DNA from: an uncultured Anaerolineales bacterium | GTDB taxonomy: Bacteria > Chloroflexota > Anaerolineae > CG2-30-64-16 | Assembly: GCA_964588925.1 (NCBI GenBank) | Contig: CAZPTI010000004.1 | Location: forward strand, 633-64,632 | Direction of reading: 5' to 3' | Length of the DNA: 64,000 nt | In this document: piece after piece, positions 35,946 to 61,619 of the stretch | How the letters are laid out: each line of letters begins with the position of its first letter | How positions within the stretch are numbered: position 1 is the stretch's first letter | The notes under the pieces: generated by a model | Told to the model about the DNA's origin: nothing | The model's input: the letters and a program-made list of their open reading frames with translations, nothing else | Database searches by the model: none | Made by a program: the position numbers and the translations under genes

Positions 35946-35956
35946 CGCGCAGATCA

Positions 35957-36017
35957 ACGCAGATGGGGTGGATTAGCAGGATCGTTTCTTGATCCCGTCA
36001 ATCCACCCCATCTGCGT
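35957..36017. repeat. long perfect palindromic hairpin (18-bp arms, inner 5-bp hairpin)
   Basis: ACGCAGATGGGGTGGATT ... AATCCACCCCATCTGCGT. Arms extend imperfectly to about 35946-36027 with duplicated CGCAGAT units. Lies between convergent genes. Confidence 0.8.
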
Positions 36018-36036
36018 CATCTGCGTGCTATTCCAA

Positions 36037-58110: not shown

Positions 58111-58225
58111 TGGCCGGGTTGAGACAAACAAAAAACGCCTTGCGGCAGCGCGCGCGCTTGCGAGCAGCAAGCGATTCACCTTAAGAATCACAGAGGGGGC
58201 GTGATCCGCGCCGGGCCAGAGAATC

Positions 58226-58271
58226 AAAAACGCCCCGTAGAGTGCTCAAAGGCACGCTCTGCGGGACGTTT
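58226..58271 (-). terminator. rho-independent terminator downstream of tRNA-Met (minus strand)
   Basis: Minus strand has an approximately 18-bp imperfect stem (AAACGTCCCGCAGAGCGTGC / GCACTCTACGGGGCGTTT), then TTTTGATT. Confidence 0.6.
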
Positions 58272-58309
58272 CATAGGTTTAAGTGGGTGACTTCTGGCAC
58301 CCGACTTAG

Positions 58310-58381
58310 TGGCGACGGACAGACTTGAACTGTCGACCCAGCGATTATGAGCCGCTTGCTCTGCCACTGAGCTACGTCGCC
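58310..58381 (-). tRNA. tRNA with anticodon CAT (elongator Met, or Ile2 if lysidinylated)
   Basis: Hand-folded 72-nt cloverleaf: GGCGACG acceptor, loop CTCATAA, T arm GACAG-TTCAAGT-CTGTC. The normal 1-72 pair means it is not an initiator. Confidence 0.85.
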
Positions 58382-58875
58382 AAACCATTCACTATTATAT
58401 CCGTTCCGCTCATCACGGTCAAATTACGGCCATTTACGCCTTCTGCTGGCGCGATTTGTTCTAACAGATGCCATGCATCCCGATACGCTGCTGACCGTGG
58501 TTTCCGTTGTCGCCGATCCGTCTCCACCATCGAAATCCCGCTGCGAAAGCCCAGAAAGACCTCAACAGGCAGCACATAGAAAACTGTTGCCTCTGGCAAG
58601 TACACCAGCGCAAAATCGAAGTCCTCGCTCGTGTAACTGCTGCGAAGCATTACGCGCCGGTTCGTCTTCGTGCGACGCGTGTCCATCATGTAGTTGGCTG
58701 ACTTCTCGTCCAGCCAAGCGGCCTTGACTTGCGCCTTAACCAGTCGCCCTTTCACGTCAAACACCAGATCATAGGGCAACCGGTCGCCTACAGGACGCAA
58801 CACGCCCCACCCGCGCTTCAGCCCCTCGAGAATCGCCGCTTGTTCCGCAATATCGCCTTTAAGCTTGGTGTCCAT
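58372..58875 (-). CDS. PD-(D/E)XK endonuclease, I-Ssp6803I-like (group I intron-associated family)
   Basis: 167 aa. KGDIAEQAAILEGLKRGWGVLRPVGDRLPYDLVFDVKGRLVKAQVKAAW fits the small PDDEXK_5-type fold. Own RBS (GAGGGTGGG). Lower GC by eye. The last 10 nt overlap tRNA-Met. Confidence 0.7.
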   Translation of the reverse strand: MDTKLKGDIAEQAAILEGLKRGWGVLRPVGDRLPYDLVFDVKGRLVKAQVKAAWLDEKSANYMMDTRRTKTNRRVMLRSSYTSEDFDFALVYLPEATVFYVLPVEVFLGFRSGISMVETDRRQRKPRSAAYRDAWHLLEQIAPAEGVNGRNLTVMSGTDIIVNGLAT

Positions 58876-58908
58876 CTTCGCCCACCCTCTTTTGGTCTGC
58901 GGATAAAC

Positions 58909-58943
58909 AAAAGACCTGGCAGCTAAAAACTGCCAGGTCTTTT
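58909..58943 (-). terminator. terminator between tRNA-fMet and the endonuclease gene
   Basis: AAAAGACCTGGCAG-N7-CTGCCAGGTCTTTT. The minus-strand stem is followed by TTTTGTTT. Confidence 0.75.
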
Positions 58944-58948
58944 CTAGG

Positions 58949-59284
58949 TTGCGGGGGCAGGATTCGAACCTGCGACCTTTGGGTTATGCTTACCACCACA
59001 GCTTTCGCTGCCCTTGCGGTTTGTGGCCTGGACTTTCCCTTCGCCCTCGGTTTCCCGGTCGGGCGCCTGCCATCAAGTCTCTACACCTTCTCGAACTCTC
59101 GCTCGAGCTTGGCTCGGGGTCACCCCGCTAACGGCTTCCCCGACTTTGACAGGTAATCACGGCGCATTACTGCGACGCAGCCCTTTCCTCGACTAACCTC
59201 CGCCAGACATCTTGCGGTGCGCCTGTCGGTCTTGCCGTTAATCTCGGAGTTGAGCCCAACGAGCTGCCACTGCTCCACCCCGCG
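58949..59284 (-). tRNA. initiator tRNA-fMet (CAT) interrupted by a group I intron
   Basis: Exon 1 (59284-59253) is CGCGGGGTGGAGCAGTGGCAGCTCGTTGGGCT. Exon 2 (58988-58949) is CATAACCCAAAGGTCGCAGGTTCGAATCCTGCCCCCGCAA. Joined, they give a 72-nt cloverleaf with a C1xA72 mismatch and GGG/CCC in the anticodon stem. Confidence 0.85.
58989..59252 (-). ncRNA. group I intron, IC3-like, ORF-less (264 nt)
   Basis: Inserted between U33 and C34. Follows a U and ends in G. Core blocks GTCAAAGTCGG, CCGAGCCAAGCTCGAG, GAAGGTGTAGAGACTTGATGGCAGG, GAAAGTCCAGG and GGCAGCGAAAGCTGT resemble the Anabaena tRNA-Leu and Azoarcus tRNA-Ile introns. Confidence 0.8.
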
Positions 59285-59322
59285 TCGAATGTTTTCCTAT
59301 TATACTCGTTGCGCCCCATCTG

Positions 59323-59700
59323 TCAATTTAGCCCCAGGGCTTTCAACCAACTCTGCCAGAGCGGGCCTTCCGGCTGCTGTGGGGCCTCCGGTTCAAGCGC
59401 CGGCGCCGGCGCCACTTGCGCACCCTGCACGCCCTTCGGCAGCCGCCCGAACATGTCCCACGCCTGGCCGGGCGCCAGCTCGCCGCGTTGGCCGCGCTCC
59501 AACTGGATTTGCAGCAGCAGATTCTGCCGCTCCAGCCGGTTTCGCCGCTCCAGCGCCTGCTGGTAATGCCCGTCCATCGTCCGCCGCGTCATCGCCAGCT
59601 CCACAAAGCCGGCCGCAAAGAAAACGACCGCGGCCAGTGCCGCAAGCGTCAGGACTCGCGACGGGCCGATCACTCTGCGCAACGACTTGAGCGCGGACAT
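59323..59700 (-). CDS. FtsB/DivIC-like septum formation initiator (single TM + coiled coil)
   Basis: MSALKSLRRV..TM..ALERRNRLERQNLLLQIQLERGQ. ATG at 59700. The ORF-track extension to 59823 runs into tRNA-Leu and is rejected. Confidence 0.55.
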   Translation of the reverse strand: MSALKSLRRVIGPSRVLTLAALAAVVFFAAGFVELAMTRRTMDGHYQQALERRNRLERQNLLLQIQLERGQRGELAPGQAWDMFGRLPKGVQGAQVAPAPALEPEAPQQPEGPLWQSWLKALGLN

Positions 59701-59781
59701 CCCTGCCCTCCGGTTGCCACAAAAAGGGTTACTGGCCCACAGGCAGAAAATCCCACGGCACAGCCGCGGGATCTGGATAGG

Positions 59782-59865
59782 TGCCGAAGGAGGGAGTTGA
59801 ACCCTCACGAGCTCAATGCTCACTAGGTCCTGAACCTAGCGCGTCTGCCATTCCGCCACTTCGGC
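59782..59865 (-). tRNA. tRNA-Leu (anticodon CAG)
   Basis: 84-nt class II cloverleaf: GCCGAAG acceptor, loop TTCAGGA, long variable arm TGAGCATTGAGCTCGT, T arm GAGGG-TTCAACT-CCCTC. Confidence 0.9.
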
Positions 59866-59897
59866 TCGGCTGTTCGATTGTACGTCGATTTATAACA

Positions 59898-61619
59898 CTA
59901 TTTCTCCGACGTGTCAAGTTGCGCGGGGCTTTGTTCTGTTGAGCGCGTAGGTAGCGGAACCGCCGTGCGCTGGGCGCCAGCACTGCCCACCGTCACACGC
60001 TTTGTCACGATATACCAGTTCGCAATGCTCCGGTAGCGGTCGCCGGGCGTGTTCAGCGGGCCCATCTGCGCATCCCGCACCTTGTCCCGCACGCCGTACG
60101 TGTACACCGGGTAGTAGAGCAGCAGGGAAGGCACTTCCTCGCTAAAAATGCGCTGGAAGTCCTTGTAGTACGGGATGCGGCTTTCGTGGTCGGGCAGCGA
60201 ACGCGCGCGCTCGATCGCCTCGTCGGCCGGCCGGCTCTCCCAGCCCGCGTAGTTCTGCCCGGTTTTGGCCTGCGTCGAGTGCCACAACGGGTACGGGTCG
60301 GGATCGCCCGACAACTCCCAGTCCACCAGGGCTGCGTCGAAGGTGCGCGGGGCAAGGAAGTCCGCGGTGAGGCCGGGCAGGCTGACCGCTTGCGGCTCGA
60401 CCTTTACGCCGATCTCCGCCCACATCCCGCTGATCGCATCCAGTTTCGCCTTATCCTTCCCCAGCAGCACGAACGCCAGCTTCACGCCCTCGCGGTCGCG
60501 CACCCCATCGCCGTCGCTGTCGACCCAGCCGGCCTGGTCCAGCAGTTGCTTTGCGGCCTCCGGGTCGTACCCGTACTTCGTGACTTCCTGGTCGTACGCC
60601 CAGCTATACGGCATGATGGGCGAATTAGCGATCATCCCCTGGCCCTTCAACACCGTGTCGATCAGCTTCTGCCGGTCGAGCGCATACATCAGGGCTTTGC
60701 GCACGGCTGCATCCTTGAAGAAAGGCGTGTTCGGGTTCTGGTGGTTCAGGTAGATCACAGTGTAGCCCGAAACGGGCGCGGAGAAGAGGTTCAGGTCGGT
60801 CAGCTCGGACGTTTTTGCCATATCTTCCGGCCACAGCCAGCTAATCGCGTCGATCTCGCCGCGCTCGTAAGCTGGCATGAGGCTCTGATGGTCGGGGTAA
60901 AAGCGGATGGTGATGCCGTCAAGGAAGGGCGCAGGGCCGTGGTAAGTCGGGTTTGTCTTGAGCCTGGCTTCGGTCGCGGTGATGTTTTCCAGAACGAAGG
61001 GGCCTGTGCCGACCGGCCGCGTGTTGTACTGCGAGCTCATCAGGTCGGCTGTGGGCACGTCCTGCCACAGGTGCGCGGGGAGCAGACCGATCGTGGTGTA
61101 GTCGACGAACGGCGCAAAAGGCTGCTTGAGCTGGAACCGGACGCTCAACCCCTCGGGCCCGTCCGGCGCAGTCGCTTCGACCTCGCGCCACAGCGCGCTC
61201 AGCCACGCCATGCCGGGGAAGTCCGGCGCCTGCATCGTCTTGACCGTATGGAGCACGTCGTTCGCCGTCACCGGGACGCCGTCATGCCAGTATAACCCCG
61301 ACCGCAGCTTGAAGTCGTAGGTCAGGCCGTCGGGGCTGATGGTCATCGTATCGGCAAGGTCGGGCACTACGTTGCCGCGCTCGTCGAGCCGCGTCAGACC
61401 GTTGAAGAGCAGGCTGGAGAGAACCCCATCCACCTGGTTGTACTGGCTGAGGAGGGGGTTGAGGAACTGGGGGTTCCCGGCCATACCCTCCACCAGCTCA
61501 CCGCCGTGGTCGGGCACGGTGACGCTGGTGAAGTTATAGGCCGTATAACGCAGCAGGGCGGCCAGGAGCGCGATGCCCAGGATCGCGATCACCGCCTGCC
61601 AGCGAAGGTATCTGCCCAA
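59898..61619 (-). CDS. ABC transporter substrate-binding protein, family 5 (peptide/nickel type)
   Basis: 573 aa. N-terminal membrane anchor. SBP_bac_5-like core (GLYWHDGVPVTANDV, DAALVDW). Confidence 0.85.
   Translation of the reverse strand: MGRYLRWQAVIAILGIALLAALLRYTAYNFTSVTVPDHGGELVEGMAGNPQFLNPLLSQYNQVDGVLSSLLFNGLTRLDERGNVVPDLADTMTISPDGLTYDFKLRSGLYWHDGVPVTANDVLHTVKTMQAPDFPGMAWLSALWREVEATAPDGPEGLSVRFQLKQPFAPFVDYTTIGLLPAHLWQDVPTADLMSSQYNTRPVGTGPFVLENITATEARLKTNPTYHGPAPFLDGITIRFYPDHQSLMPAYERGEIDAISWLWPEDMAKTSELTDLNLFSAPVSGYTVIYLNHQNPNTPFFKDAAVRKALMYALDRQKLIDTVLKGQGMIANSPIMPYSWAYDQEVTKYGYDPEAAKQLLDQAGWVDSDGDGVRDREGVKLAFVLLGKDKAKLDAISGMWAEIGVKVEPQAVSLPGLTADFLAPRTFDAALVDWELSGDPDPYPLWHSTQAKTGQNYAGWESRPADEAIERARSLPDHESRIPYYKDFQRIFSEEVPSLLLYYPVYTYGVRDKVRDAQMGPLNTPGDRYRSIANWYIVTKRVTVGSAGAQRTAVPLPTRSTEQSPAQLDTSEK

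Follow-up and report, generated by a model that had tools for sequence, protein, structure and literature searches.

The window analysed here is a 64,000-nt stretch of contig CAZPTI010000004.1 from an uncultured Anaerolineales bacterium, and its subject is an initiator tRNA gene (tRNA-fMet) that is split between U33 and C34 by an IC3-type group I intron and is followed by the gene of a PD-(D/E)XK homing endonuclease of the I-Ssp6803I family. We consider it likely that the locus is a two-part selfish module, made up of the intron and the adjacent endonuclease and working like the collaborative homing of phages. It is the adjacent endonuclease gene that leads us to describe the locus as a two-part mobile or selfish module and not just as an intron. 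The layout of collaborative homing is present, that is, an intron without an open reading frame (ORF) and a free-standing endonuclease gene adjoining the interrupted gene. The intron is a further member of the described 'fMet.2Ug' IC3 class, first described in cyanobacteria, and is ordinary by itself. The difference from known systems lies in the arrangement, with the endonuclease outside the intron, the intron and the enzyme family both being known. An earlier first-pass annotation of this DNA had recognised the split gene and the class of its intron, in agreement with our results, and had not picked up the endonuclease ORF at 58875-58372. The parts of the locus are as follows.

59299-59326, minus strand: promoter of the split tRNA-fMet gene, TTGACA-16 nt-TATAAT, 12/12 consensus positions, ending 14 nt before the tRNA 5' end.
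59253-59284, minus strand: tRNA-fMet exon 1, 32 nt, positions 1-33, ending in U33, from ARAGORN in intron mode.
58989-59252, minus strand: group I intron, 264 nt, with its terminal G at 58989.
58949-58988, minus strand: tRNA-fMet exon 2, 40 nt, from C34 to the discriminator A.
58905-58943, minus strand: terminator-like hairpin between the tRNA and the endonuclease gene, with a 14-bp stem AAAAGACCUGGCAG/CUGCCAGGUCUUUU and then UUUUGUUU.
58372-58875, minus strand: homing endonuclease gene, 167 aa, PD-(D/E)XK, I-Ssp6803I family (PF11645, 2OST).

The coordinates of exons and insert, all on the minus strand, are those that the first-pass annotation had given, and the marks of a bacterial initiator that it had listed are borne out. 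Both on the joined exons and in intron mode, ARAGORN folds a 72-nt cloverleaf with anticodon CAT (CAU), in which C1 stands opposite A72, unpaired at the top of the acceptor stem. Three G-C pairs (GGG/CCC) at the base of the anticodon stem surround the loop CUCAUAA, A11:U24 is read in the joined sequence, and 65 of the 72 positions match E. coli tRNA-fMet, which had been described as almost identical. By these marks the joined 72-nt product is an initiator tRNA-fMet, predicted to be charged, formylated and used in initiation. Of the CCA end, only CC is encoded, directly after exon 2 (58948-58947). In intron mode ARAGORN reports a tRNA-Met(CAT) in which a 264-nt intron separates gggct from cataa; in a scan of the window without the intron option the split gene is not called. 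No second initiator tRNA was found within the 64-kb window, and an uninterrupted initiator gene occupies the orthologous locus in relatives. Promoters given here and below are consensus matches from a sequence scan alone.

The insertion site, CU/CAUAA (loop positions 2/3), is that of the classical type 'fMet.2Ug', which Williams (bioRxiv 10.1101/2020.01.27.920355) lists as CU/c...g/CAUAA among four classical bacterial tRNA intron types, all IC3. In his seed Tpc1.fMet.2Ug the conserved blocks of the window intron recur one after another, as compared by eye. The blocks that had been quoted earlier as typical of such introns (GTCAAAGTCGG, CCGAGCCAAGCTCGAG, GAAGGTGTAGAGACT, GAAAGTCCA and GCGAAAGC) are all present, and the insert is preceded by U and has G as its last base, as group I splicing requires. 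There is no ORF of at least 60 aa on the intron's own strand within the 264 nt. The covariance-model search that had been proposed as a check gives a divided result: the match to Rfam RF00028 is partial and significant by E-value (59154-59065, P3-P6/J6-7, model positions 49-158; E-value 5e-5 for a 551-nt region and 0.0058 for the whole 64-kb window), and it lies under the gathering score, so that Rfam at its gathering threshold reports no intron in the window. The drawing of P1 to P9 by hand, likewise proposed, was possible throughout, including the P3/P7 pseudoknot, with the following helices.

59255-59252 with 59183-59180, minus strand: P1, GCUC with the guide GGGC, 4/4 standard pairs, U.G at the 5' splice site.
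59251-59184, minus strand: P1 extension, a 68-nt hairpin folding at -20.3 kcal/mol.
59179-59171 with 59166-59158, minus strand: P2, 8/9 pairs, GUAA loop.
59153-59148 (CCUGUC) with 59071-59066 (GGCAGG), minus strand: P3, pseudoknotted with P7.
59143-59138 with 59119-59114, minus strand: P4; the P4-P6 domain is 59085-59143.
59134-59132 with 59127-59125, minus strand: P5.
59113-59111 with 59087-59085, minus strand: P6.
59107-59103 with 59094-59090, minus strand: P6a.
59081-59076 with 59034-59030, minus strand: P7, bulged A in the 5' strand; the catalytic core is 59030-59081.
59065-59061 with 59046-59042, minus strand: P8, inner CGG/CCG, GAAA loop, then J8/7.
59027-59023 with 58996-58992, minus strand: P9, 3' strand placed from the alignment.
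Within 58992-59027, minus strand: P9a, CC-GCAA-GG.
59011-59007 with 59002-58998, minus strand: P9b, GAAA loop, placed from the alignment.

In order to assess this model we used an alignment of the last 210 nt of 74 introns and a set of 53 pairs that includes the P3/P7 pseudoknot. Pairing is found in 96.7% of cells, compared to 32-40% when the partners are slid by 1-3 columns. Changes on both sides occur in 33 of the 53 pairs; shuffled controls give 20.8 ± 2.0, and 0/500 of them reach 33. Covariation is seen in P2, P3, P6, P6a, P8, P9 and P9b: all 9 family-level pairs of P2 show two-sided changes, P3 is 100% paired across the family with compensatory changes in 4/6 pairs, and 4/5 pairs of P8 are compensatory. 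P7 is invariant in all 73 distinct sequences, and five of the six P4 pairs never vary, the exception being one G-U/G-C pair. A third base pair in P5 was rejected, being unpaired in 58/72 sequences. This pairing, together with the compensatory changes, shows that the structure of the intron is conserved by selection, and the structural model is consistent with an intron that probably self-splices with guanosine.

The P1 extension occupies the position at which the endonuclease ORF is found in other genomes (cf. PMC3073962 Table 1). A long P1 hairpin of the same shape but of different sequence is present in the related loci L003, L004 and L009 (L-numbers are labels of compared loci). Among the Anaerolineae introns without an ORF, the tip of this hairpin (~70 nt) carries a conserved motif, CCGCA(C/A)A(A/G)(A)UG, and the first ~16 nt of the P1 loop (CAACUCCGAGAUUAAC) resemble the leader before the endonuclease start codon in the intron-encoded forms. 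A separate observation concerns a 602-nt intron in a Nitrospirae metagenome-assembled genome (L042), in which the whole P4-P6 segment is missing in the alignment and the tail of the endonuclease is shortened; either degeneration to a non-splicing copy or an error of assembly may account for this.

The second part of the locus, the endonuclease ORF, begins 73 nt past exon 2 (71 nt past the ARAGORN tRNA 3' end) and beyond the hairpin, has a GAGGG ribosome-binding site at 58889-58885 and ends with the stop codon TAG at 58374-58372. Since it is outside the intron, and no endonuclease is found inside the intron in the window, the gene product is a homolog of the intron-encoded enzyme and not itself intron-encoded. 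It matches PF11645 (PDDEXK_5) with E=3e-47 and 160.5 bits (cut-off 26.1) over profile positions 1-137 of 138, and PDB entry 2OST with E=3e-58; identity to I-Ssp6803I is 62% (88/142). All 51 invariant columns of a 25-member alignment are kept, including E11 and Q49-V-K51, and D36 is nearly invariant; we take these residues to be those of the catalytic active-site motif. The ratio of nonsynonymous to synonymous substitution rates (dN/dS) is 0.05-0.13 in the window's clade, with synonymous sites near saturation. The endonuclease gene is intact and under strong purifying selection in this clade. Its final ~20 codons, which encode the C-terminal tail NLTVMSGTDIIVNGLAT, run across the promoter of the next gene, a tRNA-Met (the tRNA(CAU) listed below), and into the first bases of that tRNA. 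No NCBIfam model matches the window endonuclease; the NCBI product name of some homologs is 'group I intron-associated PD-(D/E)XK endonuclease', which shows that curators are aware of the association. The exact endonuclease sequence was found elsewhere in one 3.2-kb Logan contig only (L001, ERR7764195). This contig is 99.9% identical to the locus at 58200-59950, which points to the same or a very close strain in sample ERR7764195.

The association of this enzyme with split tRNA-fMet genes was then evaluated across its family, which counts 1816 members at E <= 1e-10. Species representatives of GTDB gave 424 hits, of which the best 80 were compared with the window (81 loci). The closest matches, at 74-79% identity, are from Anaerolineae and Anaerolineales metagenome-assembled genomes. 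In other genomes, 73 related loci share this exon and intron layout, each with U at -1 and G as the last intron base, and the endonuclease is on the same strand as the split tRNA-fMet in 74/74 loci with both exons mapped. The remaining 7/81 loci, truncated or atypical, match the same split-tRNA-fMet pattern. Two architectures can be distinguished. In 41 loci, and in 5 further truncated or variant ones, the ORF is inside an intron of ~600-690 nt, where 17-33 nt separate the 5' splice site from its start and 87-189 nt its end from exon 2. In 33 loci including the window, and in the truncated L002, the intron has no ORF and is 242-305 nt long, and the endonuclease gene is downstream; the distance from the tRNA to its start codon is 52-138 nt in 28 loci and 236-859 nt in the other 5. 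A hairpin and T-run ahead of the endonuclease start codon are seen in many of the other downstream loci. One locus, L067 (Tolypothrix), belongs to neither class, as its exon 1 is ~2.4 kb upstream of the endonuclease gene.

With regard to the host, the first-pass annotation had considered the neighbouring genes Chloroflexota-like and such a host unusual for a tRNA intron. Synteny and closest relatives support an Anaerolineae (Chloroflexota) origin; the host is not unusual, as Chloroflexota account for 11 of the 80 best loci, and well over a dozen groups at phylum level carry the element. The accompanying statement that tRNA introns are known mainly from cyanobacteria, plastids and a few proteobacteria is outdated, since Williams (10.1101/2020.01.27.920355) reports 5292 tRNA introns across bacterial phyla, given by phylum in his Table 1. 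A scan of IMG/VR viral contigs detected no relatives of the endonuclease and thus no sign of a phage vector.

Some features of individual homologs may be recorded here. Many intron-encoded ORFs (L005-L081; e.g. L033 4001-4534 and L079 154-687) run through P2, P3, J3/4, P4 and P5 into P6, and their long tail '...ETxVRxPVKFGEAxGGVxPSQA...EKV' is the translated P3/J3-4/P4...P6 segment of the ribozyme. This overlap of coding and ribozyme sequence appears much longer than the 61 nt of Synechocystis; a shorter, 149-aa intron-encoded form ends before P3. A free-standing homolog of an Oculatellaceae cyanobacterium (L019, 4001-4507) has an in-frame stop just past the conserved domain (directly after …HLIQQFRMTD) and may be a decaying copy.

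Evidence that the two parts belong together is also found in the window's own lineage, for which the neighbouring genes are needed.

59780-59865, minus strand: tRNA-Leu(CAG), first gene of a conserved tRNA-Leu / tRNA-fMet / tRNA-Met cluster.
58394-58422, minus strand: promoter of the downstream tRNA(CAU), TTGACC-17 nt-TATAAT, 11/12 consensus positions, within the 3' tail of the endonuclease ORF.
58309-58381, minus strand: elongator-type tRNA(CAU), Met or Ile2, non-initiator, without the initiator marks of tRNA-fMet.

The order of ABC transporter, SBP5, tRNA-Leu(CAG), split tRNA-fMet, endonuclease and tRNA(CAU) is conserved in L003, L004 and L009, where SBP5 is 71-76% and the endonuclease 74-77% identical to that of the window. 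L013 (Anaerolinea) has the same synteny, but its endonuclease is inside the intron. When metagenomes were scanned for precisely this tRNA-fMet in uninterrupted form, 14 contigs were returned. Every one of them long enough to show neighbours has the same tRNA cluster, and 10/14 carry SBP5 upstream, at 71-73% identity in full-length cases. Intron and endonuclease are absent from all 14, and the spacer from tRNA-fMet to tRNA-Met is 48-125 nt. The hairpin at 58905-58943 is also found 3' of the uninterrupted tRNA-fMet at these empty sites, and, as compared by eye, a TTGACC/TATAAT pair is present in the longer spacer of the empty site L095 and a TTGACG/TATAAT pair in L089. In the window, a ~0.5-kb endonuclease cassette stands between the retained hairpin and the tRNA-Met promoter. 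Both parts are present in 5 loci, neither in 14, and one alone in 0. The empty lineage is interleaved with the occupied ones by SBP5 identity, L003 being 75-77% identical to empty and 72-74% to other occupied loci. This comparative evidence suggests that intron and endonuclease were gained or lost together at the orthologous site.

The tRNA(CAU) at 58309-58381 is 68-69/73 identical to its empty-site counterparts and might serve as the right-hand homology arm when the endonuclease gene is co-converted. In the 3' strand of the anticodon stem (UCGCU) it resembles E. coli tRNA-Ile2, and the gene could be that of a lysidine-modified tRNA-Ile and not of an elongator tRNA-Met. On the other side of the split gene, the spacer between tRNA-Leu(CAG) and tRNA-fMet (59285-59779) is conserved in length, with 495 nt in the window and ~480-580 nt in relatives and empty sites. 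On its minus strand there is a ~125-aa ORF with a hydrophobic N-terminal segment and then a charged Q/E/R-rich stretch. The matching gene on Logan contig L001 is without a Pfam entry on record, and conservation of the ORF is weak, being detectable in L004 only and faintly in L089. Elsewhere in the window, Rfam gives a sub-threshold match to the microRNA family mir-5928 (35947-36025, minus strand; 38.6 bits, gathering score 59, E=2e-4); such a match in a bacterium is almost certainly due to a hairpin formed by chance.

It might be argued that the split gene is a dead relic that no longer splices and that an uninterrupted initiator elsewhere in the genome serves in its place. The visible part of the genome is 64 kb, and the Rfam score is under the gathering threshold, which would both allow for this. 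On the other hand, the promoter matches the consensus perfectly, all invariant core nucleotides and all helices are intact, and the exons are identical to the uninterrupted orthologous gene in relatives. An intact and selected endonuclease would also be expected to cut any uninterrupted copy. We therefore regard a relic as very improbable.

As a two-part selfish module, the locus would work in the following way. The split tRNA-fMet would be transcribed from its own consensus promoter, after which the intron would fold; in P1, the last exon bases GCU and the first intron base would pair with the guide GGGC, and two guanosine-dependent transesterifications would excise the intron to give the 72-nt initiator tRNA. 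The endonuclease would cut, by homology, the palindromic anticodon stem-loop DNA of uninterrupted tRNA-fMet genes. Such cleavage is suggested by the homology together with the association with split genes in 81/81 loci. With its two half-sites kept apart by the intron, the resident gene would itself be immune. Where an intron-less allele is cut, this locus would serve as the template for repair, so that the intron is copied, and a conversion tract reaching the conserved tRNA-Met gene would copy the endonuclease gene too (trans homing). An allele that lost the intron precisely would again be open to cleavage, so that the endonuclease would keep the intron in place. No cleavable intron-less initiator copy would be tolerated alongside an active enzyme, and splicing is therefore probably essential. 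The endonuclease is probably expressed at a low level and by read-through of the hairpin, as no promoter was detected for it.

Several points weigh against this account. First, the RF00028 match has 27.4 bits compared to a gathering score of 50. Williams (10.1101/2020.01.27.920355) notes that the Rfam model has no bacterial seed, which would explain the low score, and his own cut-offs are 18-20 bits; the gathering score is a curated threshold and not a defining property of the group I family. Second, P1 in the window has 4 bp only, with the adjacent A/A mismatched. Third, the promoter scan detects no promoter for the endonuclease gene, and a strong terminator-like hairpin lies upstream of it. 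Fourth, copying of the endonuclease gene calls for co-conversion across exon 2 and ~590 bp to the tRNA-Met, which is plausible. The survey itself draws on the best 80 of 424 genome hits and the window, and splicing, cleavage specificity and mobility are what we infer from these comparisons. Finally, for a vertically fixed module classical theory predicts decay of the endonuclease, and the strong purifying selection would need either frequent re-invasion or a benefit to the host.

In another explanation, the intron is functional and the endonuclease is no longer homing, having been adopted by the host and inherited vertically, for example as an intron-retention or 'addiction' factor, as a nuclease against foreign tRNA-fMet DNA or as a splicing helper. 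Strong purifying selection over a deep divergence would be expected of such a gene, as would the synteny kept in five Anaerolineae genomes, an endonuclease divergence similar to that of SBP5 and the lack of relatives on the viral contigs scanned. The interleaving of empty and occupied sites among equally related genomes, with both parts always together, fits better with gain and loss as a unit, and the presence of the family in many phyla at 60-80% identity suggests horizontal movement. To our knowledge, no maturase role is known for the I-Ssp6803I-type family. Adoption by the host is improbable in our estimate.

In a neighbour-joining tree (midpoint-rooted, 140-residue core) the downstream forms make up three host-specific clades, of Anaerolineae, Bacteroidota and Cyanobacteria, each nested among intron-encoded forms. 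Bootstrap support is 83% for the window's Anaerolineae clade, 0/100 for all downstream forms together and 0/100 for any two of the groups. The cyanobacterial free-standing genes end in '...CVCSPVQFGEAGF', and at the DNA level their tails align colinearly, at z up to 10, to positions ~47-96 (P1'-P2-P3-P4) of their own intact intron, which lies a few hundred bases upstream; a decayed ribozyme copy is present at the 3' end in L072 (4001-4480), L046, L078, L034, L037 and L060. This remnant of the ribozyme indicates that the cyanobacterial free-standing genes descend from an intron-encoded ancestor. At least in cyanobacteria, the gene appears to have moved from the intron to the outside, opposite to the direction of the published pathway. 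In the window's Anaerolineae clade, a search of the 3' end of the endonuclease gene for a ribozyme remnant at the DNA level found none. Three Anaerolineae relatives retain 'WAA' codons, which in the intron-encoded forms overlap the guide UGGGC; these codons are only a hint of an intron-encoded past in Anaerolineae.

The published model for the formation of mobile group I introns (Bonocora-Shub; PMC3984707) would have it the other way round: the downstream form would be the ancestral stage before invasion, in which a free endonuclease and an intron without ORF had converged independently on the same site, the endonuclease later moving into P1. This order of events agrees with the lack of a detectable ribozyme remnant at the 3' ends of the free-standing genes in Anaerolineae. 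It is difficult to reconcile with the nesting of three downstream clades among intron-encoded forms and with a single origin that none of 100 bootstraps recovers; the colinear P1'-P2-P3-P4 remnant in cyanobacteria is explained only by a move from inside to outside, and the 'WAA' codons are kept in three Anaerolineae relatives. An ancestral pre-invasion stage therefore seems unlikely to us, if a good deal less so than adoption by the host. We give somewhat under even chances to a further reading, in which the I-Ssp6803I-type endonuclease would have departed from the tRNA-fMet intron on at least two or three separate occasions (in Cyanobacteria, Bacteroidota and Anaerolineae) to settle just 3' of the tRNA, forming a stable two-gene selfish module that purifying selection has kept for long periods from the decay predicted by the homing-cycle model. 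In such a module, the intron without ORF would act as an immunity element, and the free endonuclease would both drive co-conversion and make the intron impossible to lose.

The locus is of interest for several reasons. Standard pipelines miss the initiator tRNA as well as the intron, a default ARAGORN run and Rfam at its gathering score both failing here, so that genomes of this kind seem to lack tRNA-fMet, which affects tRNA inventories and the completeness estimates of metagenome-assembled genomes. Translation initiation in these organisms is probably dependent on a ribozyme, and an active endonuclease would forbid an uninterrupted back-up gene. The same endonuclease family inside and beside the same intron, together with the empty orthologous site, offers a natural series in which the joining and parting of introns and endonucleases can be followed. 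That an endonuclease supposed to be selfish and fixed is so strongly selected calls for explanation. Recurrent origin, selection and matching empty sites add to the interest of a free-standing endonuclease locus. If the repeated departure from the intron is true, this would be the first collaborative homing on a chromosome and in a tRNA gene, and it would mean that endonucleases move out of introns as well as into them.

Among known systems, the Azoarcus tRNA-Ile(CAU) and Anabaena tRNA-Leu(UAA) introns share with the window intron the IC3 type, a position in the anticodon loop and near-identical core blocks (GUCAAAUUCGG, CCGAGCCAAGC, GAAGGUGUAGAGACU and AGUCCA). They differ in being in other tRNAs and at other loop positions, after position 36 in Azoarcus (Ile2) and after 34 in Anabaena (Leu). 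We know of no endonuclease associated with either of them.

Closer to the window are the cyanobacterial tRNA-fMet introns without ORF ('fMet.2Ug'), which agree with it in site, size range (~245-265 nt) and conserved blocks; the window intron differs by a longer P1 extension and by its place in a separate clade of Anaerolineae. Such introns were reportedly described in Scytonema and Dermocarpa by Biniszkiewicz et al. in 1994. No endonuclease is mentioned in the descriptions of them that we found; in the Scytonema, Nostoc, Calothrix and Tolypothrix genomes that we examined, an endonuclease is located 52-138 nt downstream of the tRNA in most cases.

The enzyme itself has its closest known counterpart in Synechocystis sp. 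PCC 6803, where the tRNA-fMet intron and I-Ssp6803I (2OST) represent the same gene, insertion site (CU/CAUAA), IC3 type and endonuclease family. I-Ssp6803I is encoded inside the intron, is reported to be catalytically active (PMC1995217) and recognises a 23-bp pseudo-palindrome as a tetramer (PMC3384342). Its 150-codon ORF is placed in P1 and shares 61 nt with P1/P2, the whole intron measuring 655 nt (PMC3073962 Table 1; PMC1995217 Table 1). In contrast, the window intron has 264 nt and no ORF, with a structured hairpin in its place, the endonuclease is a separate downstream cassette, and the host is a member of the Anaerolineae and not a cyanobacterium. A partial literature search returned no description of a free-standing I-Ssp6803I homolog beside tRNA-fMet or of such a layout in bacterial chromosomes.

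In its arrangement the locus is most similar to phage collaborative homing, represented by F-CphI beside the psbA intron of cyanophage S-PM2 and by mobE / I-TevIII in T4 nrdB, with gene 5.3 of phage T3 versus the intronic I-TslI as a further comparison for trans homing (PMC3984707, PMC2790892, PMC6083498). As in the phage cases, an intron that lacks an ORF or is defunct is adjoined by a free endonuclease whose presumed target is the insertion site, and the intron gives immunity. A 2014 review recorded collaborative homing for two phage systems only (PMC3984707). The phage cases concern protein-coding genes and enzymes of the HNH or Endo VII type, whereas the window has an essential chromosomal tRNA gene and a PD-(D/E)XK enzyme, and, set against the phage cases, the enzyme family of the window also occurs inside the same intron in other hosts.

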